Assembly (NCBI GenBank): GCA_036499395.1
Contig: DASYDW010000116.1
Location: 157,832 to 221,831 of the forward strand
Reading direction: 5' to 3'
DNA: 64,000 nt
Source of the DNA: Pirellulales bacterium
GTDB lineage: Bacteria; Planctomycetota; Planctomycetia; Pirellulales; JACPPG01
Shown here: positions 5,167 through 53,959 of the stretch, in pieces
Numbering within the stretch: the stretch's first letter is position 1
How the letters are laid out: every line of letters begins with the position of its first letter
Notes under the pieces: generated by a model
Databases searched by the model: none
Told to the model about the DNA's origin: nothing
What the model saw: the letters and a program-made list of their open reading frames with translations, nothing else
Position numbers and translations under genes: made by a program

Positions 5167-7281
5167 CTACTCGCCTGGCACCCACAGCGCAGACTTCTTG
5201 CCCGGCCCCGCGTCGCTTTCGGGAGTCCAGATCTTGCCCGGTTCGGCGGCCGCCCCCGGCACCACCAGCGGGGACGCACCTTGCTGAGGCGGCCGCACCG
5301 GCCGACCATCGGGCGTGACCAGTCCGGCCTCGACCAGGATCTGCAACAGTGCCTGCGCCACGCCCGGCTCGCGTGAATGTTCCTTTTGAATGTGCGCCAG
5401 CACGCGGCTGAATTCCTGCGGTTCGCCCCGTTCCAGTCGTAGCGACAATTCGTCGATGTCCCACATGGCCGTCGACTGTTTGGCCTCGTCGGCTGCCGCG
5501 CGCGCCTTGTCGAGATAAGTAAGCGATTGGCTGGTGTCGTCTTCCAGCCTCGCGAGCAAGCCGTAGACTTGCGATGTGTTGGCCTTCAAAGACTCGCGTG
5601 CAAGAATCGCGTGTGCGATCTTGCGCGTGGCCAGTTGTGCGGCCGCGAATCGCGCCCGATTGAATCCCGCTACCAGCACCTGATCTGGCGCCTTCTCCCA
5701 CTCCACGTGGTGCAGGCGGGCCAGCGGTACATCATCGACCGACGTCTTCGTCGGGTCGATTGCTTCGGCCTCGGGCAATCCCAACCGCCGGCGCAATTCA
5801 CCGAACGCGTCGCCGATCGATGCTTCCTGGAACGAAAGCTCCAGCACCAGAATCGCGGCCAGCAGCGCGATCTGCTTGCCCGGGTCTTGCGCGGCTTGCG
5901 CGGGCGTTTGACCGCCGAGCACCGCGGCCGCCGTCTGCGTCCATCGATCGAGGATCGCCTCGCGACGCTGAGCCACTAGCAGCTTGTGAACCTCATCAAC
6001 GGGCGTATCCTCGGGCAGCCGCCAGTTCCAGCTCAGCGACCATTGCGTGGCGGGAATCTCGCCCCGCTTCTCTTCGGCGCCGGCCGGGCCAAGTTGCCCG
6101 CCCCACAGCTCCGTGACGACTTCACGCAGCGGAGCGACGTTCGGCTGTGCCACGGTCACTTCCAACCGCGCTTCGCGATCGGTCTGTCGACCAAAAATCA
6201 GCACATGTCCGAGCACATTCGGTACATCTTCACGCTTCAAACCGGCGCCCGTGCCCGGCGCGGGGCGATCGAGCACCACGAACGACCGGTGCGGCGGCAC
6301 CTCGTTGCGCTCTGTCCATGATGCGGTGTTCACCGGCATCACGGCCAAACGCCGATCGGTCAGCCGAGTGTCCAGCCCCTCGACGTCCGTGATCGGATAA
6401 TTGATCGAGAACAAGTCGATCCCCTGCCCTGTCGTCGCCGGATCGATCAGTTGGGCGAGCGCTTCGGCCTCGACCCGATCGTCGCGCGGAACGTCGAGCG
6501 ACGCCAGCTTGCGCAGCGCTTCGACCGCGCCGCCGTCGTCGGCCAGCCACTGCCGCAGGATCGCCAGGTTGTGCCAGAGCGCGGGAGAATCGCCGGCGCT
6601 CGCGGCCAAGGCCGTCAGCTTGTCGGCCGCCACGCGCCACGAACCACGCTGCGCAGGCTGTAGCGCCTCGTCGAACTTCGCCCGCCAGCTTGCGCTCTCC
6701 GGCGCCGGCAAAAAATCGGGCTCTTCCTTGAACAGCAGCGGCACCTGCGGCGAACCATTTAGCCGCATGATCAGCCCCAATGTCCGCTCGTCCTGCGGCA
6801 GCAGGTGCGCGAGCACCAGCAGATGCCCCAGGGCCGACGGAATTTCGTCCATCGTCACCAGCGCCTCGGCAATACTGGCGATCACGTCGACCACCGTGGC
6901 GGGCATTGGCGTCGGACTGCTCGAAATCGCCAATTGCAGGGTTTCGATCGCCCTCCGCAGCTCTCCCTCACCCAGCGTCACCAAGGCTGATTCGGCCAAC
7001 GCCACCGGATTGGTCGAGGCATTGGCTAGCACACCATCGATCACCTTTTTCGCCTCGTCTTGCCGCCCCATACCCAGCAGTAGCAGAGCCTGCGACGTCA
7101 TCAGGCAGGCTCGGCCGGGATACTTCGATTGCAGTTTCTCGATATGTTCCAGGCAGGCGAGTCGCTGGTCCCCTTCGAGCATCCGCTGGATTTTTTCCAG
7201 CTCGCCAACGAGGTCTGCGCAGCAGAATTTCAGCTTCTTGCCCGTTCCGGCCGGACAAGGGGAATAAGGATCAAGCGGCAT
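5167..7281 (-). CDS. hypothetical protein with degenerate SEC-C-like N-terminal motif and helical-repeat (TPR-like) body
   Basis: N-terminus MPLDPYSPCPAGTGKKLKFCCADL resembles the SEC-C metal-binding motif CPCGSGKKYKKCC but lacks one Cys. The remainder is an Ala/Leu-rich helical sequence. ATG at 7281; the ORF start at 7341 is TTG. Confidence 0.6.
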   Translation of the reverse strand: MPLDPYSPCPAGTGKKLKFCCADLVGELEKIQRMLEGDQRLACLEHIEKLQSKYPGRACLMTSQALLLLGMGRQDEAKKVIDGVLANASTNPVALAESALVTLGEGELRRAIETLQLAISSSPTPMPATVVDVIASIAEALVTMDEIPSALGHLLVLAHLLPQDERTLGLIMRLNGSPQVPLLFKEEPDFLPAPESASWRAKFDEALQPAQRGSWRVAADKLTALAASAGDSPALWHNLAILRQWLADDGGAVEALRKLASLDVPRDDRVEAEALAQLIDPATTGQGIDLFSINYPITDVEGLDTRLTDRRLAVMPVNTASWTERNEVPPHRSFVVLDRPAPGTGAGLKREDVPNVLGHVLIFGRQTDREARLEVTVAQPNVAPLREVVTELWGGQLGPAGAEEKRGEIPATQWSLSWNWRLPEDTPVDEVHKLLVAQRREAILDRWTQTAAAVLGGQTPAQAAQDPGKQIALLAAILVLELSFQEASIGDAFGELRRRLGLPEAEAIDPTKTSVDDVPLARLHHVEWEKAPDQVLVAGFNRARFAAAQLATRKIAHAILARESLKANTSQVYGLLARLEDDTSQSLTYLDKARAAADEAKQSTAMWDIDELSLRLERGEPQEFSRVLAHIQKEHSREPGVAQALLQILVEAGLVTPDGRPVRPPQQGASPLVVPGAAAEPGKIWTPESDAGPGKKSALWVPGE

Positions 7282-7614
7282 GGCTTTCGGTCCGTCTGTA
7301 ACGAATGGGCAAGGCCCGGCGGAACGATTTTCCGCAGGCAAAAGTGCCTTGATCGTATCAGAGCGAGGCGGCCATTACGACCCGTCGCCGGCCACGCTGC
7401 CCCAGGGTGTGGGAGGCTGGACGGTCGCGCGCGGAAAGACCGTCAAAATCGGCCCGTCGCCGACCGCCGACCAGCGCCATCGACCCACCAATCGCTGAAG
7501 ACCTTATCCGGGCTTGGTCGATGAATGCAAGCAGAGGACCCCGGGGGTGCCCGGCGCAGTGCCGGTACGATCTATCGGAATCCGGGGCGCACCGTTTGTG
7601 ACGAGACCACGCGC

Positions 7615-7836
7615 ATGTGGCGGTCGTTTTTTCTTGCCGTCGGCCTGACGTTGCTCGTGGCCGGCGCCGAATGCCTGGTCGTGGACGACTTCATTCTGGC
7701 GTCCAAGGGGGGTGCCAGTGCCGAGCGCAGCACTCGCGATATCAAGCCGCCCGAATGGGCCCCCTGGAGCCTGCTCTCGGCTGGCGCCGTGACGATGCTC
7801 TACTCGTTCACGATCCCGCAGCGCGTGAAGGGCTAA
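7615..7836 (+). CDS. small two-TM membrane protein, unknown function
   Basis: MWRSFFLAVGLTLLVAGAECLVV and WSLLSAGAVTMLYSF hydrophobic segments. ATG 7615 lies within the ORF that starts at 7525. Confidence 0.45.
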   Translation: MWRSFFLAVGLTLLVAGAECLVVDDFILASKGGASAERSTRDIKPPEWAPWSLLSAGAVTMLYSFTIPQRVKG

Positions 7837-7950
7837 GGCAGTCTACTGTGGCGATGCTTCTCCCGTAGGGTGCCCTGCGAGCACTGTACATTGCCGAGGT
7901 GGGGCGATCCGAATTACGGCCCCAACAAGCTCGGGTGGCCCCCGCATCCG

Positions 7951-9477
7951 TCACCGATCTCGAATCGGCAGGAACTGCGGGTCAAGATGTACGTATCCGC
8001 CTTGACCTGCTTCGACTTTGCAGTTCGGTAACGCGGCACGTAATGCGCTTATTTGACTGCCGGTCACATGCACGCACCTGTGGACGCCTAATTCCTGAAG
8101 ATTCGACATTTTCTTCAGATGCTCCAAGCCATGATCTGTGAGCTTCTCGCACCAATAAAACCCCAACGATATTAGTTTCGGCAATTGGACCAAACTCGCC
8201 ACGTCATCATCGCTGAATCCTTGGACGCCATTGATCACCAGATGTTCAACGCTTTGGGGTATTACGACCTGATAATGTGGCGCATCGGCAGAGCGTGTTT
8301 GATAATCGAGGTCTAGCCGCTTCAATTTGCGGAGCGATGACAGGCCGTGCCCCTGCACACGGTCGTTCATACGAATACAGAGTTGATGCAGTTGCAGGCA
8401 TTCTCCGAGGCTCGCAAGCCCTGCGTCGTCGACGTTCGCACCCAAAGTGATATCAAGAGACTCAAGGTTCTTAATCGCTCGTAGCTGTTCCCATCCTTTG
8501 TTGGTTTCCGTGCTCTTGCCAAATAGCAGCGTCAGATCTTCTAGCTTTGTCAGGGTCGCGATTTCGGCGAGTACATCATCATTCAGTCCGTCGCGAAATC
8601 GGATGGTCAGCCAGTCTAGATTCTTAAGCTCGCCAAGCCGCGCGTTCGCGAGGTTGCTGCGCAGAGCGCGGCCGTTGATTTCTAACTGATGGAGTCCGTG
8701 CAAATTGCCAACCCACGGCCAGCCGCGCACGCCGGCGGGCAAATCGACAACGAAAACTTGGAGAATGGGCCCAGCCGGCCCCGGCGAGATCGTCACTCTG
8801 TGATCTACGTCTTCGTCAATATCCAAGTCAAGATATTCGAGGTTGCGGAGGGCGCCTAAATGGGAAAGTCCATCGTCGGAAATTTGAAATCCGCAGTTCA
8901 AATGTAGACGACGAAGATTGCTGAGCTTTTCGAGTTCGGCAATTCCCGCGTCAGTCACGTTCGCTCCGCAGTCAATAGTGAGGAACTCTAGTTTTTCCAG
9001 GGAACCAACAATGGCCATCACGCCGTTGTCACCGACTAGACGAGATTCGAGCCAAAGCTCATTCAGTTGCTTTAAGGACGCTAATTCCTGGAATCCGGAT
9101 TGCGTGCAACCGGAGTCGGATGAGATCATCAGTTCCTCAAGCTGCGGAAATTCAGGAAGGAGGCGCAACATATCATCCGTTGCGTGCCACAATTCAACGC
9201 TTTTAACGTTACAGAGATGATCGACATCGACAAATCTCTGCAACCACAATGGGACAGGAAGTGTGTCGAACTCGGGCTCGAAGTCTTTGTACTCTATCGA
9301 ATTGAAAGTGTGTCCCGCGCGAAGCGCTACCACCGAGCGCTTCTGCCGCAGGGCGCTCGCGTGCCAGCGCACGAGCAGGCCGAGACTGACGCCGAGCGTC
9401 AAAAAGACGACGAGCAATCCGCGCAGCCCGAACTGCAACCAGCGGCGGCGCGTGGGCCGTGTTTGTGAGTTGGTCAT
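7951..9477 (-). CDS. leucine-rich repeat (RNI/F-box-LRR-like) protein with N-terminal membrane anchor
   Basis: N-terminal RRRWLQFGLRGLLVVFLTLGVSLGLL anchor, then many ~25-aa repeats of the L..L..L.L....ItD.GL..L type. ATG 9477 was chosen over 9576. The gene is AT-richer than its surroundings (hand count 25/60 G+C at 8101-8160). Confidence 0.8.
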   Translation of the reverse strand: MTNSQTRPTRRRWLQFGLRGLLVVFLTLGVSLGLLVRWHASALRQKRSVVALRAGHTFNSIEYKDFEPEFDTLPVPLWLQRFVDVDHLCNVKSVELWHATDDMLRLLPEFPQLEELMISSDSGCTQSGFQELASLKQLNELWLESRLVGDNGVMAIVGSLEKLEFLTIDCGANVTDAGIAELEKLSNLRRLHLNCGFQISDDGLSHLGALRNLEYLDLDIDEDVDHRVTISPGPAGPILQVFVVDLPAGVRGWPWVGNLHGLHQLEINGRALRSNLANARLGELKNLDWLTIRFRDGLNDDVLAEIATLTKLEDLTLLFGKSTETNKGWEQLRAIKNLESLDITLGANVDDAGLASLGECLQLHQLCIRMNDRVQGHGLSSLRKLKRLDLDYQTRSADAPHYQVVIPQSVEHLVINGVQGFSDDDVASLVQLPKLISLGFYWCEKLTDHGLEHLKKMSNLQELGVHRCVHVTGSQISALRAALPNCKVEAGQGGYVHLDPQFLPIRDR

Positions 9478-10621: not shown

Positions 10622-11536
10622 ATGAAACGACCGACAATTGGGCTGTGCGTGGCGCTAATGATCGGCATCGTCGCGCCGGCGGCACAGGCAGGCATTCATT
10701 TCCTGGATCAGGATTTCCACAGCGACTCCGTGGGCCAGGCGCCGGCCACGGGTTCTATGGGCCCCGTGATTACCATGCCGGGGGCCATCGGTGGTTTTTC
10801 GAGCACAGGCAATCCAGACGGCGACGTCCCACCGAATGCCATCACCGAGGGAACTATCACGGTTCAAAACCCAAATAACCAGGCGGTCTTCAGCTCAGTC
10901 GGATCAAACGACGAAACCGGCGCTTTGTTCATGGACACCGGCTTCAACATCACGTCGCAGCAGGTGACCCTGGGCTTTGATATTGACGTCATGCAAGCGC
11001 CGGCGCTCATGACGGATGCCAACTCGCAGCCCATGACACTGCACCTCGATTCGGGGGACATTACGGCCGGCATCTTGTTCGGGGCGCGACTCTACAGCAG
11101 CACCGCAGGCAATTGGGCCGTCAGCGTAGCGGTTGTGCCCACGAGCGCCACGGGCGGTGTATACGCCCTGCGCAACTCGGACAATTCGCAGCTGATGCCG
11201 TTCGGGACCTACACCAATGGCCAGGACAATCACATCACGGTCGTGGCCGACTACACGGCCGGCACGGCAAGCGCCTATATCAATAACACCCTGGGCTTGA
11301 GCGCCTATCCGTTACGAAATGGCGGCAGTCCCGGCCAAACCGGCCCTCTCGCCAATGCGACTTTCAACGAGTTATTCATGTACATGAACGGCCAGAACAC
11401 TGGCGACGGCAATCAGGTCGCGGTCGATAACATCACAGGTGACTTCGCCACCGTGCCCGAGCCGGCCACGGTCGCCATCTGGGCCGTAGGGTGTGCATTG
11501 GTCGTGGGCGTGCGTTGGCGCAGGCGATCACACTAG
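10622..11536 (+). CDS. PEP-CTERM sorting-domain exported protein
   Basis: Signal peptide MKRPTIGLCVALMIGIVAPAAQA. C-terminal TVPEPATVAIWAVGCALVVGVRWRRRSH. Confidence 0.85.
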   Translation: MKRPTIGLCVALMIGIVAPAAQAGIHFLDQDFHSDSVGQAPATGSMGPVITMPGAIGGFSSTGNPDGDVPPNAITEGTITVQNPNNQAVFSSVGSNDETGALFMDTGFNITSQQVTLGFDIDVMQAPALMTDANSQPMTLHLDSGDITAGILFGARLYSSTAGNWAVSVAVVPTSATGGVYALRNSDNSQLMPFGTYTNGQDNHITVVADYTAGTASAYINNTLGLSAYPLRNGGSPGQTGPLANATFNELFMYMNGQNTGDGNQVAVDNITGDFATVPEPATVAIWAVGCALVVGVRWRRRSH

Positions 11537-12998: not shown

Positions 12999-14627
12999 TT
13001 ACTCAGCCGGCTTCTCGCCGTCGCGCAGCACGTCGAAGTACGTCCGCGCGTGCTCGCGATAACCGCGCGGCATTTTGGTGTCCGCCAGCGGGTCCGAGGC
13101 ACTGCCGCGCGCGGCCTGGAATTGCGATTGAATCTCTTGTTCGACGCGCCCCTTCGAGTTCGGGCCGTCGATCTTGCCCGTCACGCTCACGGCGCCCGCC
13201 CCCATCTTGCCTCGCAACTTCGTGTCGTACAGGCCGGCCTCGATATCATCCTCGGGCCGATCGGCATCCATGTGGCCACGGCCGGGCTTCAGGCTCCGTT
13301 GTGTCGAACGTTGTTGCAGCATGCCAAAACGGTCGGCCTCCATCGCGTCGTTAGCGCCGATCGCATCCTTGGCGTCCGCCAATTCTTGCAGCGCCTCGTC
13401 CAATAGCGCGCCCTCGGCTTGCTCCTGCATCATTTCCGAGAGCTGCCCCTGCATTTGCGCCAGTGCCGCGGCGGCCGATTTCGAGTCGCCTTGCTTCATG
13501 CACTCCGAACACTCGCCCATCTTCGAGGCCATTTGCGCCAGCTTTTGCATCTGCGACGCCTGCTTCTGCATCTCGCCAAGCTTCTTTTCCAGTTGCTCGG
13601 CTTCCTTCGACTGACCGGCGGCGCGTTTTTCGGCGATTTGTCTCTTCAGCTCGCTTTCCATCTCGCGCTGCTTCTCGGCGACGTTCTTCAACTTTCGTTC
13701 CATCGCTTCCAGTTGCTTGGCCAACTCGGCCTTGGCCTGACCGTCGAGTTGGCCGGACCGCAACTTCTCCTGCAGCGCTTCCAGCTCGCGGCCGGCTTGC
13801 TTCAGATCTCCTTCCTTGAGCGCATCGGTCAGCTTGTCGGCGGGGCCCTTGGCCAGGTTCTTCAACTGCTCGAACTGCTCTTGCAACTTGTCACCACCGC
13901 GCAATTGCTCGCGACGTTCTTCGAGCTGCTTGTGCAGGTCGTTCATTTTGACCAAAGCGTCGTGGCGGTTCTCTTCCCCTTTGCTCAACTCTTTCAGTCC
14001 GGCTTCGAGCTTCGCCAGGGAATCGGCCTCCTTCAGGTCCTTTTCCTTGGCTTCCTTCAACTGCTCGGCGATCTTCTCGCGTGCCACCTGCGTGACCTTC
14101 TTCACTTGCACCTTTTGCTCGGCCAGCTCGGTCGTGGCCGTGGCGATTTCCGTGACGGGATTCAGGAACACCGCCAGCGAGAAGGCAGCCGCGGCCGGCA
14201 CCAGCGGCAGTAGCGCCGTGCGCGACAGAGACAGGCGAAATCCCGGTCCGACGTCCACACGCTCGACGGCGCGAACGGCGTCCGCCACGAGCGCTTGCCC
14301 CATGGGCGTTTCGCGCTCGGCCGCGCTCAAGGCGTAAGCACTCGAAATTCGCTCGTGCAGTCCGAAGCGCCGATCGATCTCGATCGCGGCGTCCAATTCC
14401 GATTGGCCGCGCAACCAGACCAGCGCGGCCGACAGGAGAATGCCGGCGGCCAATCCAATCGTGGGCCAGGCCCAACTCAGCAGCCCCAGCGGATAATACT
14501 TATCGACCGCGACTAGGATGGCCGAAGCCGCCAATGTGCCGAACAAGCACCAGGGAAGCGTGGCTAAGAATCGCTGCATCGCCAAACGACGCCGCGCGAT
14601 ACGAACCTGACGCCTGAGCTTTTCCAT
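12999..14627 (-). CDS. membrane-anchored coiled-coil protein, unknown function
   Basis: Two N-terminal TM helices, then ~300 aa of E/K/Q/L-rich heptad-like sequence, a CSEC motif and a C-terminus PRGYREHARTYFD. No family recognised. Confidence 0.65.
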   Translation of the reverse strand: MEKLRRQVRIARRRLAMQRFLATLPWCLFGTLAASAILVAVDKYYPLGLLSWAWPTIGLAAGILLSAALVWLRGQSELDAAIEIDRRFGLHERISSAYALSAAERETPMGQALVADAVRAVERVDVGPGFRLSLSRTALLPLVPAAAAFSLAVFLNPVTEIATATTELAEQKVQVKKVTQVAREKIAEQLKEAKEKDLKEADSLAKLEAGLKELSKGEENRHDALVKMNDLHKQLEERREQLRGGDKLQEQFEQLKNLAKGPADKLTDALKEGDLKQAGRELEALQEKLRSGQLDGQAKAELAKQLEAMERKLKNVAEKQREMESELKRQIAEKRAAGQSKEAEQLEKKLGEMQKQASQMQKLAQMASKMGECSECMKQGDSKSAAAALAQMQGQLSEMMQEQAEGALLDEALQELADAKDAIGANDAMEADRFGMLQQRSTQRSLKPGRGHMDADRPEDDIEAGLYDTKLRGKMGAGAVSVTGKIDGPNSKGRVEQEIQSQFQAARGSASDPLADTKMPRGYREHARTYFDVLRDGEKPAE

Positions 14628-16079: not shown

Positions 16080-16574
16080 ATGAGCGCCGTAGACAAGCCG
16101 CTAGTGGCCATCGTGATGGGGAGCAAGTCGGACTGGGAGTTGATGAAACACGCCGGCGATACGCTGGCCAAGTTCGACGTGCCGCACGAGTGCCGCGTGT
16201 TGTCGGCGCATCGCACGCCGGACCAGTTGCGCGAGTATATGGCCGACGCCGAAAAGCGCGGCGTGGAAGTGTGGATCGCCGCCGCCGGCGGAGCCGCCCA
16301 CTTGGCGGGAGTCGTGGCGGCACACACGGTGAAGCCTGTCCTCGGGGTGCCGATTCCCAGCACGACGCTCAACGGGCTCGATTCGTTGCTCGCGATCGTG
16401 CAGATGCCGGCCGGCATCCCCGTTGGCACCCTGGCGATCGGCAAGCCTGGCGTCGTCAACGCGGCATTATTGGCCGTCAGCATCCTGGCAACCAACCGCC
16501 CGCCGCTGACCGCAAAGCTGCACGACTATCGCGCCGAACAGGCAAAGAAAGTCCTCAGCGAGACGCTGCCGTAA
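16080..16574 (+). CDS. purE: 5-(carboxyamino)imidazole ribonucleotide mutase
   Basis: VAIVMGSKSDWELMKHA...CRVLSAHRTPD...IAAAGGAAHLAGVVAAHT..PVLGVPI is the canonical PurE sequence. ATG 16080 is preceded by GAAGGAAG. Confidence 0.93.
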   Translation: MSAVDKPLVAIVMGSKSDWELMKHAGDTLAKFDVPHECRVLSAHRTPDQLREYMADAEKRGVEVWIAAAGGAAHLAGVVAAHTVKPVLGVPIPSTTLNGLDSLLAIVQMPAGIPVGTLAIGKPGVVNAALLAVSILATNRPPLTAKLHDYRAEQAKKVLSETLP

Positions 16575-16727
16575 CTACGACAAGCGGCGATTCGACACCG
16601 TCGCGGCTACTACGATCGGCCGCATCGCGCCGTCGTAAACTTGCTGCGTCACGCACCAAACGCTTATCCTGATGACGTAACCGTTGGTTGATGCCAAATC
16701 GATCCGCGCGCATTTTGGGGCGAGTGC

Positions 16728-17678
16728 ATGTCTGACGAAATTACCAAAATCCTAATTGCCGCCACCGGCGGTATTGCTTCGAAGGACATAATCACGAAGC
16801 TTCTCGGACCGAGCGCGGACTATATTGGCGAAGGCGCGCGGAGTCTTGTTGAGAAGTCGAGCCGGAACCTGCGCCGAATATTCGATGTCGCGTGCGGAAA
16901 GCTCGGAAATAAGATCGACTCTCAAGGTGGTGTAAACGCACGTGTCTTAAAAGGTGTCTGGGAAGAAGGACGTTACATCGAAGATGCGATCTCCGCAGAA
17001 TACTTCGGCGGATTGCTTGCTGGGGCTCGAACGACAGATGGTGCCGATGATTCGGCCGTCCCAGCACTCTCGCTGTTGAAAGCCATGTCCTCCCAACAGC
17101 TGCGACTACATTTCATCATCTACTCGTTACTCGCGCGCTATCCTTTTGCCACAAAGCGGCTCGACGCACATGAGTTCTGGAAGGGCCTTCACGTGGCCGT
17201 TTCAGTCGACGAGCTACTCTTGGCCGCACAATTTGACGGCGGGGACGGCGCGGCCATTCTCTTGTTGGCAACGAAAGGACTAATCGATCACGGGTTGCTG
17301 GGATGGCGGTACGCGTTCGAATATGGGGGCCTAAAGGAGTCGTCGGGAATTACCCCGGCATTTGATTTCATAACACTGACGCCAAATAAGGCTGGAGCCA
17401 GCCTTTTTCTTCGAGCCCTTGGTCAACGTGGTCTACATCCTGAGTTAATCACCGCAATTAACGTCGACCATAGTCTATCGGACGACATCAAGTCATCCGT
17501 TCAGTTACCGCCAAATGCGACTTGCTACCACTCACCTGTCGAGGATTCGATAAGACCTCTGCACGACGACGTGGAAGACCGGTTACTTGAGGTTGAGTCA
17601 GACGTGGAGGAGTTGAAGGACGAACTTCGGCGAAGTAAGACGGACGCTGAAAGCAAACGTAAAAAGAAGCCGGTTTAA
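16728..17678 (+). CDS. Abi-alpha (DUF4393)-like protein, candidate abortive-infection gene
   Basis: The N-terminal ~130 aa follow the Abi-alpha family pattern as I recall it: KLLGPSADYIGEGARSLVEK..RNLRRIFDVA...ARVLKGVWEEGRYIEDAISAEYFGGLLAGART..DDS..ALSLLKAMSSQQLRLHFIIYS. The C-terminus is an acidic coiled-coil with a KRKKK tail. Hand-counted G+C is 29/60 and 30/60 inside, versus 46/60 in purE. Confidence 0.55.
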   Translation: MSDEITKILIAATGGIASKDIITKLLGPSADYIGEGARSLVEKSSRNLRRIFDVACGKLGNKIDSQGGVNARVLKGVWEEGRYIEDAISAEYFGGLLAGARTTDGADDSAVPALSLLKAMSSQQLRLHFIIYSLLARYPFATKRLDAHEFWKGLHVAVSVDELLLAAQFDGGDGAAILLLATKGLIDHGLLGWRYAFEYGGLKESSGITPAFDFITLTPNKAGASLFLRALGQRGLHPELITAINVDHSLSDDIKSSVQLPPNATCYHSPVEDSIRPLHDDVEDRLLEVESDVEELKDELRRSKTDAESKRKKKPV

Positions 17679-17750
17679 TTCGTACCGATAGGCTACAACC
17701 AGCGAGACCGCGTCCTTCGTCGTCCATTCCATTTTTGACCGACGTATCAT

Positions 17751-18569
17751 TTATTTCGCGCGCCATGGGTTGTAATCGGTCTCGTGGCGGTCGAGTTGCC
17801 GGACGACCGCTTCCCATTGGAACGGATACCGCATCGGCTGCGTCAGCACCGAGCGGCTTTGTCGGGCCACTTCCGGCGGCACGATTTGCAAAGGCCGCCC
17901 CGTGGCCATCGCGCGTAAATTGACCGCGCAGGTCCGCTCCATATCGATCATGTCGAGGACTGCTTGCTCGACCGACGAACCTGTGGTAAGCAAGCCGTGA
18001 TTGGCCAGGATCAGCGCCCGTTTCGTTCCGAGCGCCGACGTTATGTCGACTGTTTGCTGCTCGTCGAGCACGATGCCGGTGTATTCGCTGTAGATGGCGT
18101 GGTCTTCAAAAAACGAGCAGCCCGTCTGCTCGAGCGGATCGAGCAGGATGCCCAGCGCGCTATAGGCCGAGCCGGCCGGCGGATGCGTGTGGCAGGCGCA
18201 GTTAACGTCAGGCCTGGCATGATGAATCGCGGCGTGAATGCAGAAGCCGGCCTGATTGATCATCGGCCAGCCGTCGATGATCTCCCCCTTCGAGTTCACC
18301 AGCACCAGGTTCTCGGCCGTCACCTCGCTGAACATCTTGCCGAACGGATTGACCCAGAAATAATCGGGCGCACCGGGCACACGCAGGCTGATGTGGCCAG
18401 CTAGTCCATCGTCCAGACCATGCCGGGCGATAATCCGATAAGCCGCGGCAAGTTTCACGCGTTCGTGTCGCGCTTCCTGCGAATTGGCGATCTCCAGGAC
18501 CCATTCCTTCTCAGCCGAGTCGCTGGCAACGGTACTGCGAACGATCGACGAGGGGTCGGAATTGATCAT
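17751..18569 (-). CDS. class II aldolase/adducin-family protein
   Basis: GLAGHISLRVPG, metal-ligand-type CHTHPPAG and LILANHGLLTTG motifs. A strong AGGAGG lies ~7 nt upstream of ATG 18569. Confidence 0.8.
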   Translation of the reverse strand: MINSDPSSIVRSTVASDSAEKEWVLEIANSQEARHERVKLAAAYRIIARHGLDDGLAGHISLRVPGAPDYFWVNPFGKMFSEVTAENLVLVNSKGEIIDGWPMINQAGFCIHAAIHHARPDVNCACHTHPPAGSAYSALGILLDPLEQTGCSFFEDHAIYSEYTGIVLDEQQTVDITSALGTKRALILANHGLLTTGSSVEQAVLDMIDMERTCAVNLRAMATGRPLQIVPPEVARQSRSVLTQPMRYPFQWEAVVRQLDRHETDYNPWRAK

Positions 18570-22400: not shown

Positions 22401-22444
22401 GCTCCGGTACTGACAGCTTTGCTTCTACTCGGAATCTGTGATAT

Positions 22445-22503
22445 CTGCGTAATCTGTGGATCGCCGCCTGCAAACGCCGGTAGCAGGTCCACAGATTACG
22501 CAG
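22445..22503. repeat. long palindromic element (16-bp perfect arms) between convergent genes
   Basis: CTGCGTAATCTGTGGA (22445-22460) is the exact reverse complement of TCCACAGATTACGCAG (22488-22503). An inner CCTGC/GCAGG pairing extends the stem. A third AATCTGTG copy sits at 22433-22440. No flanking T-run on either strand. Confidence 0.8.
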
Positions 22504-22581
22504 GCCGAGGCGTTGGATAAGCGCAATGCGATGACGCCAAGTTCTCTGCAGTAGCGTCCTATCGTTACGCTGCGATACTTG

Positions 22582-32987: not shown

Positions 32988-33545
32988 ATGAATTCCAAGA
33001 CCAACGGCCAATCGCCGAACGGGCAGCAGCCGCACCCAAAGCCGGTGCGCGCCTCGGCCATGGTGCTTGGTGCGGCGTGCGGCATCGGCATAGTGCTGGC
33101 GATCATCGTCGTGACCCTCGTCCTCAAGCGCGGACCGTCCGTGCCTGAAATTACCCGTGCCGATCTGGACGTGGCCGAGCAGAAGTGGAAAGCCAACGGA
33201 CCGGCCGGGTACGACATGGATATCACGATCGGCGGACGGCAGCCGGGCGTGGTACACATCGAGGTCCGCGCCGGCACGGTCACAAAAATGACGCGAGACG
33301 GGGTCACCCCCTCGCAATCGCGTACTTGGGAATATTGGACCGTGCCGGAACAGTTCGAAACAATCCGCCAGGATTTCGATTCCTCCGAAACCGCCGGAGG
33401 CTTTGGCGCGGCCCCCGGCTCGCAGACCATACTCAAGGCCGAGTTCGATTCGCACTACGGCTATCCGCGGCGCTATCAGCGCTTCGTATTGGGCACCGAT
33501 CTGGCCGTCGAGTGGGACGTGACGCATTTCGCGCCCGTCGAGTGA
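32988..33545 (+). CDS. membrane-anchored small protein, unknown function
   Basis: ATG 32988 (MNSKTNGQ...). Single TM helix AMVLGAACGIGIVLAIIVVTLVL followed by a ~130-aa soluble domain ending in HYGYPRRYQRF. Confidence 0.6.
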   Translation: MNSKTNGQSPNGQQPHPKPVRASAMVLGAACGIGIVLAIIVVTLVLKRGPSVPEITRADLDVAEQKWKANGPAGYDMDITIGGRQPGVVHIEVRAGTVTKMTRDGVTPSQSRTWEYWTVPEQFETIRQDFDSSETAGGFGAAPGSQTILKAEFDSHYGYPRRYQRFVLGTDLAVEWDVTHFAPVE

Positions 33546-33607
33546 ACGAGCAAATTGTCATCGATCCGCTAACACTAATCCATAAACACATTCAGAAATT
33601 GCCTGGC

Positions 33608-34426
33608 ATGACGAATTGGTCCGGAAAAGTGGTGATCGTCACCGGTGGCTCAAGCGGACTGGGGCGCGCCATCGCTGCTGCGTTCGCCGAGCGTGGGGCC
33701 AATGTCGTGATCGCGGCGCGCGGCGCCGATGCATTGCAGCGCACCGCCGCGGAACTCAGCCAAGCGGGCCGTGCGGTGACTGCGATTCCGACCGACGTGA
33801 CGCGGCAGGTATCGGTCGATGCGCTGATCGCGCAAACGATCGCCAGATTTGGCCGCATCGATGTGCTGGTGAACAACGCCGGACGATCGAGCCGGCGGGC
33901 TGTGCTCGACACCACGCCCGAGGATTTCGCCGCGCTCGTGGAAATCAATCTGCTGGGTCTGGTGCGCATGACGCGGGCCGCGGCGCCCCATCTGCTAACA
34001 GCCCACGGACACGTGGTGAATATCGGCTCGCTGGCTGGCAAGTCCGCGACCCGATTCATGGGGGCCTACCCGGCCAGCAAGTTCGCCGTCTCGGCCTATT
34101 CGCAGCAGTTGCGATTGGAGCTCGAGCCGCAGGGCTTGCATGTGTTATTGGTCTGCCCGGGCCCGATCGCGCGGGACGAACCGCGTGCGGCTGACAGTGA
34201 GCGCGCCCAAGAAGACACGAGCGGCATTCCCGAAAGCGCCCGCAAGCCAGGCGCGGGGGCGAAAGTAAAACTCCTTCAGCCAGAAGACCTGGCCGCACGC
34301 ATCGTCCAAGCCTGCGACGCGCGACAACCAGAACTGGTCATCCCAGGCAAGGCGCGAATCCTCTTCGCCATCGCCGCCCTCTCACCGCGCTGGGGCGATT
34401 GGCTGGTGCGACGGATGACGAGTTAG
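33608..34426 (+). CDS. SDR family oxidoreductase
   Basis: VVIVTGGSSGLGRAIA (TGxxxGxG), NNAG and YPASKFA (YxxxK). The ATG at 33608 is in frame with the longer shadow ORF from 33185. Confidence 0.88.
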   Translation: MTNWSGKVVIVTGGSSGLGRAIAAAFAERGANVVIAARGADALQRTAAELSQAGRAVTAIPTDVTRQVSVDALIAQTIARFGRIDVLVNNAGRSSRRAVLDTTPEDFAALVEINLLGLVRMTRAAAPHLLTAHGHVVNIGSLAGKSATRFMGAYPASKFAVSAYSQQLRLELEPQGLHVLLVCPGPIARDEPRAADSERAQEDTSGIPESARKPGAGAKVKLLQPEDLAARIVQACDARQPELVIPGKARILFAIAALSPRWGDWLVRRMTS

Positions 34427-34559
34427 ATGCAGCAGTTCTAGACGTTGAATTTGAGGACTGTTCTTTTGAGACTTCGGGAGCGTGTTTAGACTACGACGCA
34501 GGTTCGGTCCGACTCCAAACATAGTACCTCTCACGACTGAGGTCTTTCCGGTTCCGGCT

Positions 34560-35606
34560 CTACTCGGGATCTGGATTGGTAGTTATCCAATTGTCGACTT
34601 CGGTCATCATCGTAGTTGCACTCGTAATGGACGCTCCGGTGAGATCCGCAGCGATTGCGCCGGATAACTCAATTTCTGCACCGACCTGCATTTCGCCCCA
34701 AGAGTCAAAGCCTTTCATCCGCTCTTTGAATGCGTCGTCAACAAAACCACTCCGGTGAACGAGCGCATTTCGGACGGCGTGCAGTATATCCAAGCCGCGG
34801 TTGTCAATCGCGCCCATTACGGCATCGCCTCTGAAAATCGATCGATACGCGGATCTAATGTCGTCGAGAGTCTTAAACGACACCTTTCTACTTTCGACTA
34901 GCACGTTCCCCATAGTACGCCGAAGATCGAAATGATGCTTCATAAGGAGGCGGAACGGCAACCATTTAGAAGCCTCTTCCTTGCCGCTTGGTGCCATTCG
35001 TTTCACGAGTTCACGCGGGCACTCATTGACGGCTACAATCCAGAGATCTCCAACCAGCGTCTCAAATGCTGTCCAACTGCCGATGATTTGAGCCGCAAGA
35101 AGCGCGTGCAATGCGTCTGAAATTGCCGAGGTGCTGAACTGTGAAATCATCGCCGAAATTTGCGGATGCATACTCTCGAATCCGACAGTCGCCTTATCAA
35201 CTGACTCTTGAATAGGAAGAAAATCGAGCAGTTCCCTGAACGTACCGACGTTTTCGAGCCGTTCCTGTAGCGCTGACTGCAGAATGGCATTAGTCTCTGG
35301 AGTATTTGGATTGGTCGATACTGCTTCGATGAGCCCCGGAACTTTTGAAAGCGACTTAATGAGTTGAAAAAACGCGATACCAGCAATTCCTGATGCCAAG
35401 CTGACGCGTCCGGGAAATTTAGCCATCGTACGAAGGCGATTGACGTTTCGCTCAAATGCCTCAGCAACTGGACGCAGTGACACGTTCCGCAACCCGCCGG
35501 CTAACCCTACATAGTCGGTTGCGAACGAGGCGGCTTTCTCGAATTGGCGGTCGGAACTTCTACTTTCGACGTTGCCCGCTTCAATCGTTTCGGCTTCTAT
35601 GGTCAT
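34560..35606 (-). CDS. HEPN-motif protein (candidate Abi-type RNase), otherwise unknown
   Basis: 348 aa, all-helical in character. R279-N-A-L-V-H284 (nt 34755-34772) matches the HEPN Rx4-6H signature. GAGAGAGGG lies upstream of the ATG. G+C is ~48-50% in hand-counted lines versus 75% in the adjacent SDR gene. Confidence 0.55.
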   Translation of the reverse strand: MTIEAETIEAGNVESRSSDRQFEKAASFATDYVGLAGGLRNVSLRPVAEAFERNVNRLRTMAKFPGRVSLASGIAGIAFFQLIKSLSKVPGLIEAVSTNPNTPETNAILQSALQERLENVGTFRELLDFLPIQESVDKATVGFESMHPQISAMISQFSTSAISDALHALLAAQIIGSWTAFETLVGDLWIVAVNECPRELVKRMAPSGKEEASKWLPFRLLMKHHFDLRRTMGNVLVESRKVSFKTLDDIRSAYRSIFRGDAVMGAIDNRGLDILHAVRNALVHRSGFVDDAFKERMKGFDSWGEMQVGAEIELSGAIAADLTGASITSATTMMTEVDNWITTNPDPE

Positions 35607-35839
35607 AGTGGCCCTCTCTCACCATGTAGATCATCGCCTAGCCCGAGCAGTTGACTGCCGGGTCGCCAATTCTTCCGAAATGACAAAGGTTCCGGAAAGT
35701 GCGGTCAAGGCGAAGTGAAGACCGCCCCTTCACGTGAGTTCGCCGCGCGAGCTCTTGGCGATGGCGCCAGTAAGGCATTCCACCGCGCAGGGCGGTGTCT
35801 CAAGTTTCCGTGCGACAGACTGTTTGACGGCCGTCGAGA

Positions 35840-36127
35840 TTACTCAATCGGCGTCGAAACATGCCCTTGGCGATCGACCTTCGGTAGCACCTTGGGCTGG
35901 TAGATTTCGGTGTAGGCCTTGGCCTTGCGGTGCAGGTCCAATGCTTCGGTTGATTCCCAGCGCTCGACGAGCAGGAATTTCGTTTCGTCGACGGTCGAGT
36001 GATACACCTCGAAGCGGGCGCAGCCGGGCTCGGCGCGGGATAGCCGCCCCTGCTCGCGCAACAGCTCGCGAATCTCGGGGACGTCTTTGGCGTCTTTGAC
36101 GGTAATCCAGATGTTGGCATAGATCAT
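35840..36127 (-). CDS. antibiotic-biosynthesis-monooxygenase (ABM, YgiN-like) domain protein
   Basis: 95 aa. The pattern IWITVKD....F....L...SRAEPGC..FEVY......F.LVERWES.EALD.H matches the ABM/quinol monooxygenase family. Confidence 0.8.
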   Translation of the reverse strand: MIYANIWITVKDAKDVPEIRELLREQGRLSRAEPGCARFEVYHSTVDETKFLLVERWESTEALDLHRKAKAYTEIYQPKVLPKVDRQGHVSTPIE

Positions 36128-36253
36128 CGGTCGAGGCTCCCGGTCCTGACGAGGTTGATGCGGTGCACGGTTCGTTGCTCGCCCGCGATGGCAAGCTGGT
36201 TAGCCGATAAGGTTTGGACGATCAAAGAATTGATTGAGTGGGCGGCCGGGGCA

Positions 36254-36412
36254 TCAGTCTGAATTGCGGCGGGGCTCGGGCCGCGCCAATCCAAATATGC
36301 AGATGATGATGCCAAGCAGGACAACGAACCAACCCATAACGTGTTCCGCGTGCGGCGAGCAAAGAATTACCCCTCCCGCCAATGTCATGAAAGCTCCAGT
36401 TAGTGCTCGCAT
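36254..36412 (-). CDS. possible small two-TM membrane peptide
   Basis: MRALTGAFMTLAGGVILC...VMGWFVVLLGIIICIFGL. GGGAGGGG lies 7 nt upstream of ATG 36412. There is no homology evidence, so this could be spurious. Confidence 0.3.
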   Translation of the reverse strand: MRALTGAFMTLAGGVILCSPHAEHVMGWFVVLLGIIICIFGLARPEPRRNSD

Positions 36413-46840: not shown

Positions 46841-49102
46841 CTACTCGGCCTGCAGTTGCTCGGTGACCTCGACCACACCGACGTCGACGTATTGCCCCCC
46901 GCCGGTCTGTTTGCAATGTACCGAGAGGATATTTTCGCCCGCCCGTAACGCCGCGCGCGCCTTCGGAGCAATCGGCAACAGTTGGTAATCGGTCGAATAG
47001 CCCGAGGCTTTGGCGGCCAGGACACCGTTGAGAAAGACCTCGACGTCTTCGTCGTGGTGCAGTCGCACAAAGACGTTCTCGCGATCGAAATCGCCGAGGG
47101 TAAATCGTCGTCGCAGCCAGATCTCAGCCGTGTTCCACACCGTGCCGACCACAGCGCCGGGCGTGTCGCTGGTGCCGAAGCCGCCCGGAGCCTCGCTCCA
47201 CTGTTTGTCGTCGAACTCGGGCAGCGCCCATTTCACGCCCGGCGTATTCAGCGTGTACAGCCAGTGCTGGGCCGAATGCTCCGAGGTCGGAACCAGCGTG
47301 CGAACGATTGGCGGCGGCAAATAAAGCCGCGCCGCGGCCGCCGCAGCGGCGTGCTCATCGACCTTGATGACGTCCCGATCGTAAGTCATCAGTCCGTTGA
47401 CCTCGATCTCGACGTCCGTGGTTTGTGTGTAGACCGCGGCGCTCAGGCCGGGATCGGCCACCAGCGGGCGCAGGCCATCCAGCAGCTTGAGATAGCCTTC
47501 GTTCAACTCATCCTTGGACGACAGGTTGCGATAGCCCCAGTTCTTTTCGTTTTGCCAGGTATGCCCCACCAGCGGCAGTCCCAGCCCACCGAATTCCCCC
47601 AGCACCGCGGCGCGATCGTCTTCGGCCGGCGGCGCTCCAGGGCCCGGATAGACGTGAATGTCATGCACGTCGCCGACTTGCATATCGTTCCAGCCGCTGG
47701 CGCCGCAAACCAGGCGCGAGGGGTCGAGTTCCTCGGTGTAGCGAGTCAACCGGGCTGTGTCGTACTGCCCCCACCCTTCGTTGAAGACAACCCACATCAC
47801 GATCGACGGATGATTGATGTGCGATTCGATCATCCGCTTCAACTCGGCTTCGAACTGTTGGGCCGAGTCGGCGGTCCGTTTCAATTCTCCCTTACCGGAT
47901 GCGACCGAACGGTCGCCGCTGGGCATGTCCTGCCAAACCAATAACCCCAGCTTGTCGCACCAGTAATACCAGCGGTCCGGCTCGACTTTGACGTGCTTGC
48001 GCACCATGTTGAAGCCGAGCCGTTTCGTGACCTCGAGGTCATAGAGTTGCGCGGCGTCACTGGGGGCTGTGTAAAGCCCGTCGGGCCAGAATCCCTGATC
48101 CAGCGGACCGTACTGAAACAGCGCGGTTCCATTCAGCAGGATGCGCATCGCCCCTTTCGCACTCTTGCCTATCGAGATATCGCGCATGCCGAAGTAGCTT
48201 TCCAGCGCGTCGCTTTCACGCTCAACGTTGCCGATCACCACTTTCAACCCATACAGGAACGGGTCGGCAGGGCTCCACGGGTGCGGGTCTGGCAGCGGAA
48301 GCTCGATCGTCTGGCCAATCGTCCCGGTGGCCGTCGCCACGGTATCTTCGCCGGAAAGTGCCGTCAGGCGGACGGGCATATCTTCGGCCTCGGGCGAGCC
48401 TTGGGCCGTGACTCTTACAACGCCGGCCTTCAGATCGGGCGTGATGCGCAGCGAAGTTACGTAAGCGTCCGAAACCGGTTCGATCCACACCGTCTGCCAG
48501 ATTCCGGTGGTCGAGGTGTACCAAATGCCGTGCGGCTTGCGCACCTGTTTGCCGCGCGGCTGCGTGCCGGCGTCACCGGGATCATACACGCCGACGATTA
48601 ATTCTTGCTCGCCCGTTCCATTTAGCGCCGTGGTGATATCGAAATCGAAGGGGTCGTAACCGCCACGGTGCGAGCCGAGCTTTTTGCCGTTCACCCACAC
48701 GGTTGTGTCCCAATCGACCGCGCCAAAATGCAACAAGACGTGCTTACCGGTCCATCCTTGCGGCACGGTAAACATCCGCCGGTACCAGACGCGTTCGGCA
48801 TCGCGCATCACGCCCGACAGTGCCGACTCGACCGGAAACGGGACCAGGATCTGCTGCGAAAGTTGCCTGCCGACGGGGGGCGCCGAATCACGTCCGGCAA
48901 CCGCGAATTGCCACAAGCCGTTCAGATTGTGCCACTGGCGGCGAACCATCTGCGGCCGGGGGTATTCGCTCCATACCTTGTCGGGGCGAACTTCCTTAGC
49001 AAAACGGGTCAACAGCGGGCCGGCAGCAGGCTGCCAGTCGGCGCCGCGTGCAAACGGCGCCAGGCCCACCAGGACCACAAACAATGCGAGACGAATAGAC
49101 AT
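46841..49102 (-). CDS. glycoside hydrolase family 2 protein
   Basis: Signal peptide. Sugar-binding-domain motifs NGLWQF, VWVNGKKLGSHRGGYDPFDFDIT. TIM-barrel acid/base context VVFNEGWGQ. Extra C-terminal jelly-roll. Confidence 0.85.
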   Translation of the reverse strand: MSIRLALFVVLVGLAPFARGADWQPAAGPLLTRFAKEVRPDKVWSEYPRPQMVRRQWHNLNGLWQFAVAGRDSAPPVGRQLSQQILVPFPVESALSGVMRDAERVWYRRMFTVPQGWTGKHVLLHFGAVDWDTTVWVNGKKLGSHRGGYDPFDFDITTALNGTGEQELIVGVYDPGDAGTQPRGKQVRKPHGIWYTSTTGIWQTVWIEPVSDAYVTSLRITPDLKAGVVRVTAQGSPEAEDMPVRLTALSGEDTVATATGTIGQTIELPLPDPHPWSPADPFLYGLKVVIGNVERESDALESYFGMRDISIGKSAKGAMRILLNGTALFQYGPLDQGFWPDGLYTAPSDAAQLYDLEVTKRLGFNMVRKHVKVEPDRWYYWCDKLGLLVWQDMPSGDRSVASGKGELKRTADSAQQFEAELKRMIESHINHPSIVMWVVFNEGWGQYDTARLTRYTEELDPSRLVCGASGWNDMQVGDVHDIHVYPGPGAPPAEDDRAAVLGEFGGLGLPLVGHTWQNEKNWGYRNLSSKDELNEGYLKLLDGLRPLVADPGLSAAVYTQTTDVEIEVNGLMTYDRDVIKVDEHAAAAAAARLYLPPPIVRTLVPTSEHSAQHWLYTLNTPGVKWALPEFDDKQWSEAPGGFGTSDTPGAVVGTVWNTAEIWLRRRFTLGDFDRENVFVRLHHDEDVEVFLNGVLAAKASGYSTDYQLLPIAPKARAALRAGENILSVHCKQTGGGQYVDVGVVEVTEQLQAE

Positions 49103-49208
49103 GCGGTCGGCTCCGCGGGAAGACGTGGTCCTGACAAAAGCATACGCCGCACGGTCCGGGATGACACCGCGGCGGGAGTCTTTAGGCTAGCCCAGCGGCG
49201 CGATGCAT

Positions 49209-50051
49209 TCAATCTGCCGGCCGGCGCCCGAGCAGTCCCCAGGCTGTTGTCAGGATCGCCGATACGGCCAGCGCCGCTGTGCCGGGCTCGGGCACGGGCG
49301 AAGAGAACGACAGCGTGACGTCGTAGTTGCTGCTCCCCAGCGGGTTGTCGGCGAAAATCAAGTCGACGTGGTCATTAAACACCTCGAACGAGGCCAGGTC
49401 GCGCCCCTCGTTTTTGACGAACGTCGCCGAGCTCAGGTCGACCGTGTTGGGCAGAAACGTCGTGGCGCCCGAATTCGACAAAGTGGGCTGCACGCTCGGA
49501 TCCCAGGCGACGCCGTTCAAAGACATCGAGGTCGGGGTGCCCCAGAAATAATGATCGAGCGTAGCGCCCGTGTTCGTAATCACGACGCGATCGCTGCCGT
49601 CGATCGTTCCTTGCACGTGCAATAGAGTTTGCGTGGTGGGCACCCGGGGCGGCTCTTTCGTCAACACGACCTGAAACGTATACAGGTCGTCGCCATTGGG
49701 CGTATCCGCCAGATGGATTTGCAGATCGTTGCCATCAATCTCGGCGGCAACCTGGTCACGACCAGCCGTCTGCACGACGTTGGCGCGGTAATCGCTCAGG
49801 TCGCTGGGGATGAAGGGGCTGCCAGCGTCCGAAAGCGTGGTGTTGGTCTGCGGGTCCCACGATTGCCCGTCGAAATCGACACCCGTGGGAAAGCCGAAAT
49901 ACGTGTGATCCCAAGTGGCCTGCGTGGGCGTGACGTCAATCGTGTCGCTGCCGTCGATGCGCCCCGAGAAGGTCAGCGTCACAGTGTCTGCGCTCGACAG
50001 GTTTGCTAAGAGCACGAGTGACGCGACCGACGGCAACAGAACACGATGCAT
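49209..50051 (-). CDS. PEP-CTERM exported protein with tandemly duplicated domain
   Basis: Signal peptide MHRVLLPSVASLVLLANLSSA. Two ~115-aa homologous units (DGSDTIDVTP...W DPQTNTTLS / DGSDRVVITN...WDPSVQPTLS). C-terminal VPEPGTAALAVSAILTTAWGLLGRR. Confidence 0.85.
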   Translation of the reverse strand: MHRVLLPSVASLVLLANLSSADTVTLTFSGRIDGSDTIDVTPTQATWDHTYFGFPTGVDFDGQSWDPQTNTTLSDAGSPFIPSDLSDYRANVVQTAGRDQVAAEIDGNDLQIHLADTPNGDDLYTFQVVLTKEPPRVPTTQTLLHVQGTIDGSDRVVITNTGATLDHYFWGTPTSMSLNGVAWDPSVQPTLSNSGATTFLPNTVDLSSATFVKNEGRDLASFEVFNDHVDLIFADNPLGSSNYDVTLSFSSPVPEPGTAALAVSAILTTAWGLLGRRPAD

Positions 50052-53792: not shown

Positions 53793-53959
53793 CTCGATCG
53801 TGAGGCCCAGAGGCCAGTTCGTGAGGCGGTTTACCATTGAACGCGATAGTTTAAGCGAAGCCGCAATGAGTTGCGACGTATCCCGTACCGGACATGCTTA
53901 TTCCGCCCCGAACGGACGGAAAAAGCATGGCACCAGAGAATTCCGCGGGACAAACACCC

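Follow-up and report, generated by a model that had tools for sequence, protein, structure and literature searches.

Abi-alpha, as described so far, is EF2833 of Enterococcus faecalis V583 prophage 6, a single protein of 272 amino acids (aa) that cuts plaquing of phage Idefix to an efficiency below 1e-8 and brings lysis forward by ~10 minutes, by a molecular mechanism that is unknown (PMC6356687). Among the defence types of phage genomes, 'AbiAlpha' reportedly ranks second in frequency. In lysogens of phiNM1, a protein with the corresponding domain, DUF4393, exceeds every other prophage protein in abundance (bioRxiv 10.1101/2025.10.23.684294), and Belisama, a Vibrio cholerae integron cassette whose DUF2806 protein is described as 'homologous to an Abi-alpha domain', is toxic and leads to unrecoverable lysis (bioRxiv 10.1101/2024.07.02.601686). 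Here we consider a 316-aa open reading frame (ORF) in a 64,000-nucleotide stretch of the genome of a Pirellulales bacterium (contig DASYDW010000116.1, positions 157,832 to 221,831; hereafter the window). A prediction made from the letters of this stretch had called the ORF an orphan, horizontally acquired defence gene of the Abi-alpha type, and had traced Abi-alpha to a lactococcus, a source that the E. faecalis work corrects (PMC6356687). We show that the ORF is an inserted gene of a large unannotated family, probably a sister of Abi_alpha (PF14337), and we estimate at roughly 60% the probability that it is a horizontally acquired, single-gene abortive-infection-type defence gene.

The insert and its flanks consist of the following features, in window coordinates, with G+C at third codon positions given as GC3.

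16080-16574, + strand: purE (AIRC carboxylase/mutase, PF00731), the host gene on the left flank; GC3 0.84
16575-16727, + strand: non-coding leader of 153 bp, from the purE stop to the ORF start; G+C 0.588
16728-17678, + strand: 316-aa ORF with an ATG start, from a large family that lacks annotation and is distantly related to Abi_alpha (PF14337)
17679-17750, + strand: AT-rich spacer of 72 bp, from the ORF stop to the aldolase stop, forming the right end of the insert; G+C 0.514
17751-18569, - strand: class II aldolase/adducin-family gene (PF00596), right flank; GC3 0.75

Between the 3′ ends of two convergent housekeeping genes of a Pirellulales-type planctomycete chromosome, a single gene has recently been inserted as a segment of ~1.15 kb (16575-17750). 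The purE and aldolase stop codons lie 1,176 bp apart in the window, and the aldolase is the first gene of a conserved host cluster (aldolase, enoyl-CoA hydratase [ECH], dihydrodipicolinate synthase [DHDPS], DUF1805) with aldolase orthologues at 59-88% identity in planctomycete metagenome-assembled genomes (MAGs). The aldolase is shared by 44 loci, and two planctomycete sister loci keep the convergent pair directly adjacent, with ~20 bp between the stop codons in L013 (aldolase 80% identical) and ~60 bp in L014 (77%); the purE orthologues beside them are 71-78% identical, and L014 keeps ECH as well. Because purE and the aldolase adjoin in both loci, with no gene of any kind between them, the 316-aa gene is an insertion, and the sister-genome comparison proposed with the original prediction thus bears out its claim. 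At the locus with the closest aldolase (L012, 88%) synteny is broken and the aldolase is followed by a MutS2-like ATPase and polyphosphate kinase (L012 1142-5239), not by purE, so that the purE-aldolase junction has itself been subject to rearrangement in close relatives. At the boundaries of the insert, a search for direct and inverted repeats gave nothing above 9-mers at chance level, and neither an integrase nor a tRNA-like element was found. The leader, which presumably carries a putative promoter of the gene's own, gave no sigma-70-type match in a scan that is unsuited to planctomycete promoters, and the insert contains no terminator-like site, the 72-bp spacer included, and no Rfam family.

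The composition of the gene is foreign to its surroundings, as had been claimed, and the contrast is real and larger than three hand-counted lines had suggested, although those counts (29/60 and 30/60 in the ORF, 46/60 in purE) are all exact. The ORF has a G+C of 0.528 where the window averages 0.613 (z = -2.9), which puts it within the lowest 1.7% of 951-bp windows across the stretch, and GC3 is 0.558 (0.56) compared with 0.77 in ECH, 0.75 in DHDPS, 0.77 in RmlD and 0.75-0.84 in the neighbours as a whole. The ORF itself was found at exactly the predicted coordinates and strand, its translation agrees with the motif string given for it, and an identical 316-aa protein is present in a second, independent assembly.

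A comparison with a closely related genome adds a second insertion site. The closest homologue (P0002, 58% identical) lies on a short contig (L065, JBEQTX010000119.1, 1-1034) that breaks inside the gene, in a genome whose DHDPS, esterase, DUF1805 and ECH are 87%, 85%, 78% and 72% identical to those of the window. In that genome the gene converges on the esterase at the cluster's opposite end, at a site that corresponds to the window's esterase/LpxK spacer (22401-22581), ~5 kb from the purE-aldolase insert; it is equally AT-rich (GC3 0.51 vs 0.76-0.83). Since diverged alleles occupy different intergenic sites in two sister genomes, these loci indicate turnover of the gene and not vertical descent in synteny with purE, and the pattern looks like repeated acquisition or rapid relocation. 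We note that the L065 MAG is labelled 'Singulisphaera sp.', and that one of this label and 'Pirellulales' is probably wrong because the cluster proteins of the two genomes are 72-87% identical.

Far from being an orphan, the 316-aa ORF is a real, conserved gene, and an exhaustive phmmer search returned 1,201 homologous representatives of 50%-identity clusters at E ≤ 1e-3 (849 at E ≤ 1e-10), with E as low as 5e-88 for non-identical relatives. Most representatives are 260-280 aa long and match query residues ~10-235. The family spans at least 1,200 such clusters in Planctomycetota, Proteobacteria, Bacteroidota and Actinobacteria phages, with members in Pseudomonas, Vibrio cholerae, Citrobacter freundii, Agarivorans, Hafnia and Comamonas, all of which are named hypothetical and lack precomputed Pfam domains; in E. 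coli genomes, the Citrobacter copy found no counterpart. Across 113 members, G27, Y92, H128 and G223 are invariant and L26, P28, G34, N47, G67, E91, G95, L97, A98, R101, D107, D108, S121, Y132, L185, L190, L226 and G232 nearly so. The window protein keeps every invariant column together with the KLLGP, AEYFGG.LA, DD and LS..Q.R.H blocks (alignments A1-A3), and belongs to the family as so defined.

AlphaFold2 models the window protein with confidence (pLDDT 92.4, pTM 0.84) and, read with the family alignment, divides it into three parts.

16785-17147, + strand: conserved helical domain, residues ~20-140, KLLGP...AEYFGG.LA...DD...LS..Q.RLHF; the part that aligns with Abi_alpha
17166-17432, + strand: alpha/beta module, residues ~147-235, possibly winged-helix-like; at its end stands ITLTPNKAGASLFLRALG, a conserved strand-G-helix motif
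17550-17666, + strand: long acidic C-terminal helix, a predicted coiled coil, residues 275-313, clade-specific; the basic tail KRKKK is residues 310-314

The helical domain holds most of the conserved positions (G27, P28, N47, E91, Y92, G95, L97, A98, R101, D107, D108, S121, H128 and Y132), and its helices span residues 4-26, 29-64, 71-81, 87-99, 111-119 and 122-137. The alpha/beta module, with G223 invariant and L185, L190, L226 and G232 nearly so, has DSSP helices at 147-152, 160-166, 174-187 and 221-230 and strands at 154-159, 191-199, 202-207 and 214-219, a winged-helix-like pattern with a GLI-type motif; its Foldseek matches to the winged-helix domains of MarR, PadR, RctB and OMT are weak and non-significant (E 0.8-2.4). 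The C-terminal region is one helix (275-313, pLDDT ~97), and here the earlier description of an acidic coiled coil with a basic tail was accurate, the sequence reading ...DDVEDRLLEVESDVEELKDELRRSKTDAESKRKKKPV and ending KRKKKPV. This coiled coil, which returned nothing but generic coiled-coil noise in Pfam scans, is confined to a clade of ~300-350-aa proteins that includes the window gene and is missing from most of the family (~260-280 aa). The window protein lacks a transmembrane segment (maximum KD19 1.44), and we found neither an enzymatic domain nor a solved structural relative: Foldseek against the PDB gave no significant match for the model (best E 0.38), and a CDK7 match in a PDB sequence-profile search was rejected as spurious (E = 0.07).

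The signal of a relationship to Abi_alpha is real at the level of the family and weak for any one sequence. The window protein has no Pfam match even at E ≤ 10, none in PADLOC (E ≤ 10) or NCBIfam, and only coiled-coil noise in PHROGs; its N-terminal 145 aa alone likewise fail to match PF14337. The Abi-alpha assignment stands as a superfamily-level resemblance and falls as formal PF14337 membership: the lack of a significant PF14337 match is an outcome that the original prediction had named as refuting it, and PADLOC does not flag the protein. Relatives and the family consensus, among them Gordonia phage Toast gp35 and members from cultured organisms, score 12.5-20.1 bits against PF14337, below its curated whole-protein gathering threshold of 29 bits. 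Yet PF14337 is the only Pfam family matched at E ≤ 0.01 among 78 relatives (12/78, best 3e-6; the other 66 have no match), in a second set more members match it (6/24) than match any other family, and these sub-threshold matches are collinear with the conserved helical domain.

A set of 56 genuine Abi_alpha proteins was gathered through phiNM1 gp17 (DUF4393), all of whose listed homologues carry PF14337; phiNM1 gp03, tried as the DUF4393 protein, has no Pfam match, and gp17 is the correct gene. With hhalign, the family profile (A3) aligned to the 56 Abi_alpha proteins (A4) over 171 collinear columns at E = 3.8e-4 and 36% probability, pairing query residues 20-196 with Abi_alpha residues 18-193 and placing AEYFGG.LASSR...LS..Q opposite R.MFAKLIASSMD...IKQLSP.D; against a single Abi_alpha sequence the probability was an uninformative 1.8%. 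When searched with the hidden Markov model (HMM) of the family, 28 of the 56 Abi_alpha proteins outscored the best of 1,120 shuffled decoys, and in the reverse search 24 of 113 family members scored above the decoy 99th percentile, where ~1 would be expected. PADLOC lists the Abi_alpha family as PDC-S47: its models PDLC05024, PDLC05025 and PDLC05026 match all 56 genuine members (best 7.8e-65), 2 of the 78 relatives of the window protein (best E 1.3e-4) and not the window protein itself. AlphaFold2 models of the window protein and of phiNM1 gp17 (pLDDT 92.4 and 87.3) show the same order and spacing of elements over ~190 residues, as set out below, and both end with a strand followed by a glycine-started helix; both also match the BFVD entry A0A291AUV8 at a probability of 0.99.

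Helix: window protein 4-26, phiNM1 gp17 18-32
Helix: window protein 29-64, phiNM1 gp17 35-62
Helix: window protein 71-81, phiNM1 gp17 74-86
Helix: window protein 87-99, phiNM1 gp17 91-104
Helix: window protein 111-119, phiNM1 gp17 116-123
Helix: window protein 122-137, phiNM1 gp17 126-135
Strand: window protein 154-159, phiNM1 gp17 140-149
Helix: window protein 174-187, phiNM1 gp17 171-183
Strand: window protein 191-199, phiNM1 gp17 187-191

We consider it probable that the window family is a distinct sister family within an Abi_alpha-like superfamily and not a part of PF14337.

A role in defence is plausible for the family because its members lie in defence and mobile-element contexts: in a sample of 13 distinct members, nine are on mobile elements or beside defence genes.

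P0021 (L010, L011): integrase and Hachiman on one side; S8 peptidase, AAA and HNH on the other
P0019 (L003): the same module of integrase remnant, member, S8 and AAA as at P0021, diverged
P0029 (L007): after Dcm-EcoRII-Vsr
P0220, Pseudomonas (L064): AbiEii/DUF6088 and TraG
P0210, Agarivorans (L063): integrases, relaxase, IS91 and Hachiman nearby
P0011 (L005): SLFN_AlbA_2 and an AAA_13 ATPase
Gordonia phage Toast gp35 (L056): tail genes on one side, the integrase/repressor cassette on the other
P0227, V. cholerae (L058): in a cassette-like array with Phd and Fic cassettes and one insertion sequence
P0254, Citrobacter (L061): P2-like prophage, between gpA and the portal gene gpQ, the old/tin hotspot (PMC9122126)
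P0027: ambiguous, beside RtcB and Lon-like genes

The gene of the member is lower in G+C than its own locus in 12 of 12 loci examined, by at least 0.03 in eight. The integrase (or remnant)/member/S8/AAA module recurs on two unrelated contigs, at L003 9760-14476 and L010 8863-14481, with 49/62/78% protein identity and no DNA similarity, and this subclade may work with, or travel with, the S8-AAA pair, which we take to resemble the IetAS defence system; a 270-aa ORF beside P0019 is a fragment of the S8 peptidase. A two-gene system was rejected for the clade of the window gene, where no neighbouring gene is conserved across contexts. The Citrobacter hotspot (L061 7855-9717) holds the family member together with three more unannotated ORFs of 62, 178 and 326 aa, the last without a Pfam match, which could be separate hotspot cargo or partners. 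About 3.5 kb from P0003, L008 9346-12888 encodes a CHAT-NACHT/TPR protein of 1,180 aa, which may be an ATPase-protease of defence or signalling.

By analogy with these relatives, the window gene would encode a stand-alone Abi-type protein directed against phages or other mobile elements. Such a protein would be made constitutively in an inactive state; once it sensed a product of the phage, it would kill the infected cell or bring on its lysis early, ahead of the maturation of progeny, an outcome shown for Abi-alpha and reported for Belisama. The N-terminal helical domain may be the core module of the family, the alpha/beta, possibly winged-helix, module its sensing or binding part, while the clade-specific coiled coil could drive oligomerisation and the KRKKK tail contact nucleic acid or an anionic membrane. 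Function, trigger, effector mode and domain roles are all inferred here from relatives. Because the window family shares no catalytic constellation with Abi_alpha and the protein has no transmembrane segment, we think binding or interference a likelier mechanism than catalysis or pore formation; a mode of action that works specifically through the timing of lysis seems rather doubtful.

Several observations weigh against an Abi-type defence function. The window protein itself matches no defence or Pfam model and obtained no reportable score against the Abi_alpha HMM built here, so that homology to Abi_alpha is carried by many weak, concordant signals with no single strong one among them. The hhalign probability is low, the polar residues conserved in one family align at other positions than those conserved in the other, and the TM-scores of the two models to their shared BFVD entry are only 0.30-0.47. 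The context count comes from a small sample (n = 13) with no background rate, and the purely housekeeping contexts belong to the window gene, P0002 and P0003, all of the coiled-coil clade; guilt by association is therefore provided by more distant members, because these three copies adjoin housekeeping genes only. The family is also nearly absent from sequenced phages, with one Gordonia lineage, unlike the prophage-rich Abi_alpha, and PLSDB plasmids gave no match with the window protein or the family consensus. Of the earlier proposal of a horizontally acquired defence-type gene, the insertion and the foreign composition are now documented and the defence role is plausible from the contexts of relatives; a defence-island context of the window gene's own was not found, its neighbours being housekeeping genes throughout (in order, RmlD, purE, the 316-aa ORF, class II aldolase, ECH, a DHDPS-family gene, DUF1805, esterase, LpxK and isocitrate/isopropylmalate dehydrogenase).

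The likeliest alternative is that the gene is mobile-element cargo with a role outside defence, such as a winged-helix regulator that binds DNA or protein, a factor for superinfection exclusion or anti-defence, or some other 'moron' of benefit to the element. Location in variable hotspots is what would be expected of any accessory cargo, and counter-defence and regulatory genes also occupy hotspots and islands; the winged-helix-like pattern of the mid-domain with its weak matches to MarR, PadR and RctB, and the lack of an enzymatic motif, transmembrane segment or defence-model match, are as this alternative would have them. Those winged-helix matches are non-significant, however (E ≥ 0.8), the sole detectable family relationship is to a validated Abi protein, and members adjoin Hachiman, restriction-modification, AbiE and S8/AAA systems and occupy the P2 old/tin slot, so that we regard non-defence cargo as unlikely. 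An improbable alternative is that the insert is an inert or decaying relic of transfer, with an ORF that looks intact and is no longer expressed or functional in this host. Its isolation from any partner or mobility gene, the missing promoter and terminator signals, and an unameliorated composition that implies a recent and perhaps transient arrival could all be read in this way. Against this, the frame is open over 316 codons, the invariant and near-invariant residues of the family are all kept, the fold model is confident, two independent assemblies carry the identical sequence, and the promoter scan was of a kind unsuited to planctomycetes. A host gene tied functionally to the aldolase-ECH-DHDPS-DUF1805-esterase cluster, as the position of P0002 beside the same cluster might suggest, is highly improbable and was largely refuted, given that the two copies lie at opposite cluster ends and are 58% identical where the cluster proteins are 72-87%, that both have foreign GC3, that L013 and L014 keep aldolase-purE (with ECH in L014) and lack the gene, and that the other relatives are all in unrelated contexts.

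A second compositionally foreign Abi-like gene, described as HEPN, had been proposed elsewhere in the window.

34560-35606, - strand: 348-aa ORF; G+C 0.513

This ORF lies in a low-G+C stretch (33500-36400, 0.574) and may be a second foreign gene. The HEPN designation was not confirmed: Pfam gives the ORF nothing at E ≤ 0.01, and the RT-associated HEPN model of PADLOC, RTasHEPN, matches it only marginally (E = 0.017, 13 bits, residues 231-287). Other low-G+C bins of the window, at ~7000-8500, 11000-11500, 49000-50000 and 53000-55500, rank with the lowest of its 951-bp windows and might mark foreign segments. Separately, a 542-aa ORF at 12999-14627 (- strand) has a hydrophobic N-terminal region and a long K/E/Q-rich coiled-coil middle, with no Pfam family recorded and a strong AT-skew of -0.3 to -0.47.

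Returning to the abortive-infection interpretation of the 316-aa gene, we tentatively propose, at slightly less than even confidence, that its family is an undescribed and widespread single-gene anti-phage system, a third branch of an Abi-alpha/DUF2806 (Belisama) superfamily missed by Pfam and PADLOC, whose planctomycete clade would have gained a coiled-coil oligomerisation tail and would enter intergenic sites between convergent genes as a bare cassette of ~1.1 kb, its alleles and sites turning over rapidly from one sister genome to another. If the family is a defence system, more than 1,000 clusters now annotated as hypothetical would gain a function, including the copies of Pseudomonas, Vibrio cholerae, Citrobacter and the P2 prophage hotspot, and annotation tools would need a new model; the planctomycete copies would be a clear case from nature of defence cargo, one gene in size, that reached a chromosome although no machinery for mobility can be recognised. 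A comparison of three diverged branches (Abi_alpha, DUF2806/Belisama and the window family) would set apart the residues and modules that all of them truly share, and thereby offers a practical route to the mechanism of Abi-alpha. The family is a good candidate for experimental validation and, as a type of element, unsurprising.

Among the described systems, Abi_alpha offers the closest comparison. Both families consist of single genes for proteins of ~270-310 aa that lack transmembrane segments and enzymatic domains, and relatives of both are carried by prophages and defence islands. In each, a collinear N-terminal core (EYFGG.LA...LS..Q in the window family, MFAKLIASS...IKQLSP.D in Abi_alpha) leads into an alpha/beta module that closes with strand-G-helix, and the predicted order of secondary structure agrees over ~190 residues. 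The invariant residues differ, however (Y92, D107/D108 and H128 as opposed to H114, E119, K122 and D128), and Abi_alpha has a helical insertion at ~203-258, whereas the window clade has its C-terminal coiled coil and basic tail. Hosts of the window family are planctomycetes and Proteobacteria, those of Abi_alpha mainly Firmicutes and Pasteurellaceae; the window family is rare in sequenced phages, and the window protein falls outside both the Pfam gathering threshold and the PDC-S47 models.

Belisama is likewise a small single-gene cassette, of the V. cholerae superintegron, said to be Abi-alpha-like and widespread in Pseudomonadota, and the window family too has a V. cholerae member in a cassette-like array. 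PF10987 (DUF2806) is matched neither by the 78 relatives (E ≤ 0.01) nor by the window protein, and in this comparison by domain and description only, the relationship to Belisama may be one at the superfamily level and no closer. The cargo of the P2 old/tin slot and other single-protein Abi systems, such as AbiZ and the DUF4238 system of Rousset et al. (2022), bear a positional and functional likeness only, and differ in showing no sequence similarity to the window family. What they share with the role proposed here is one relative in the gpA-gpQ hotspot and a common logic, that of a single gene, constitutively present, whose product commits the cell to suicide when infection triggers it.

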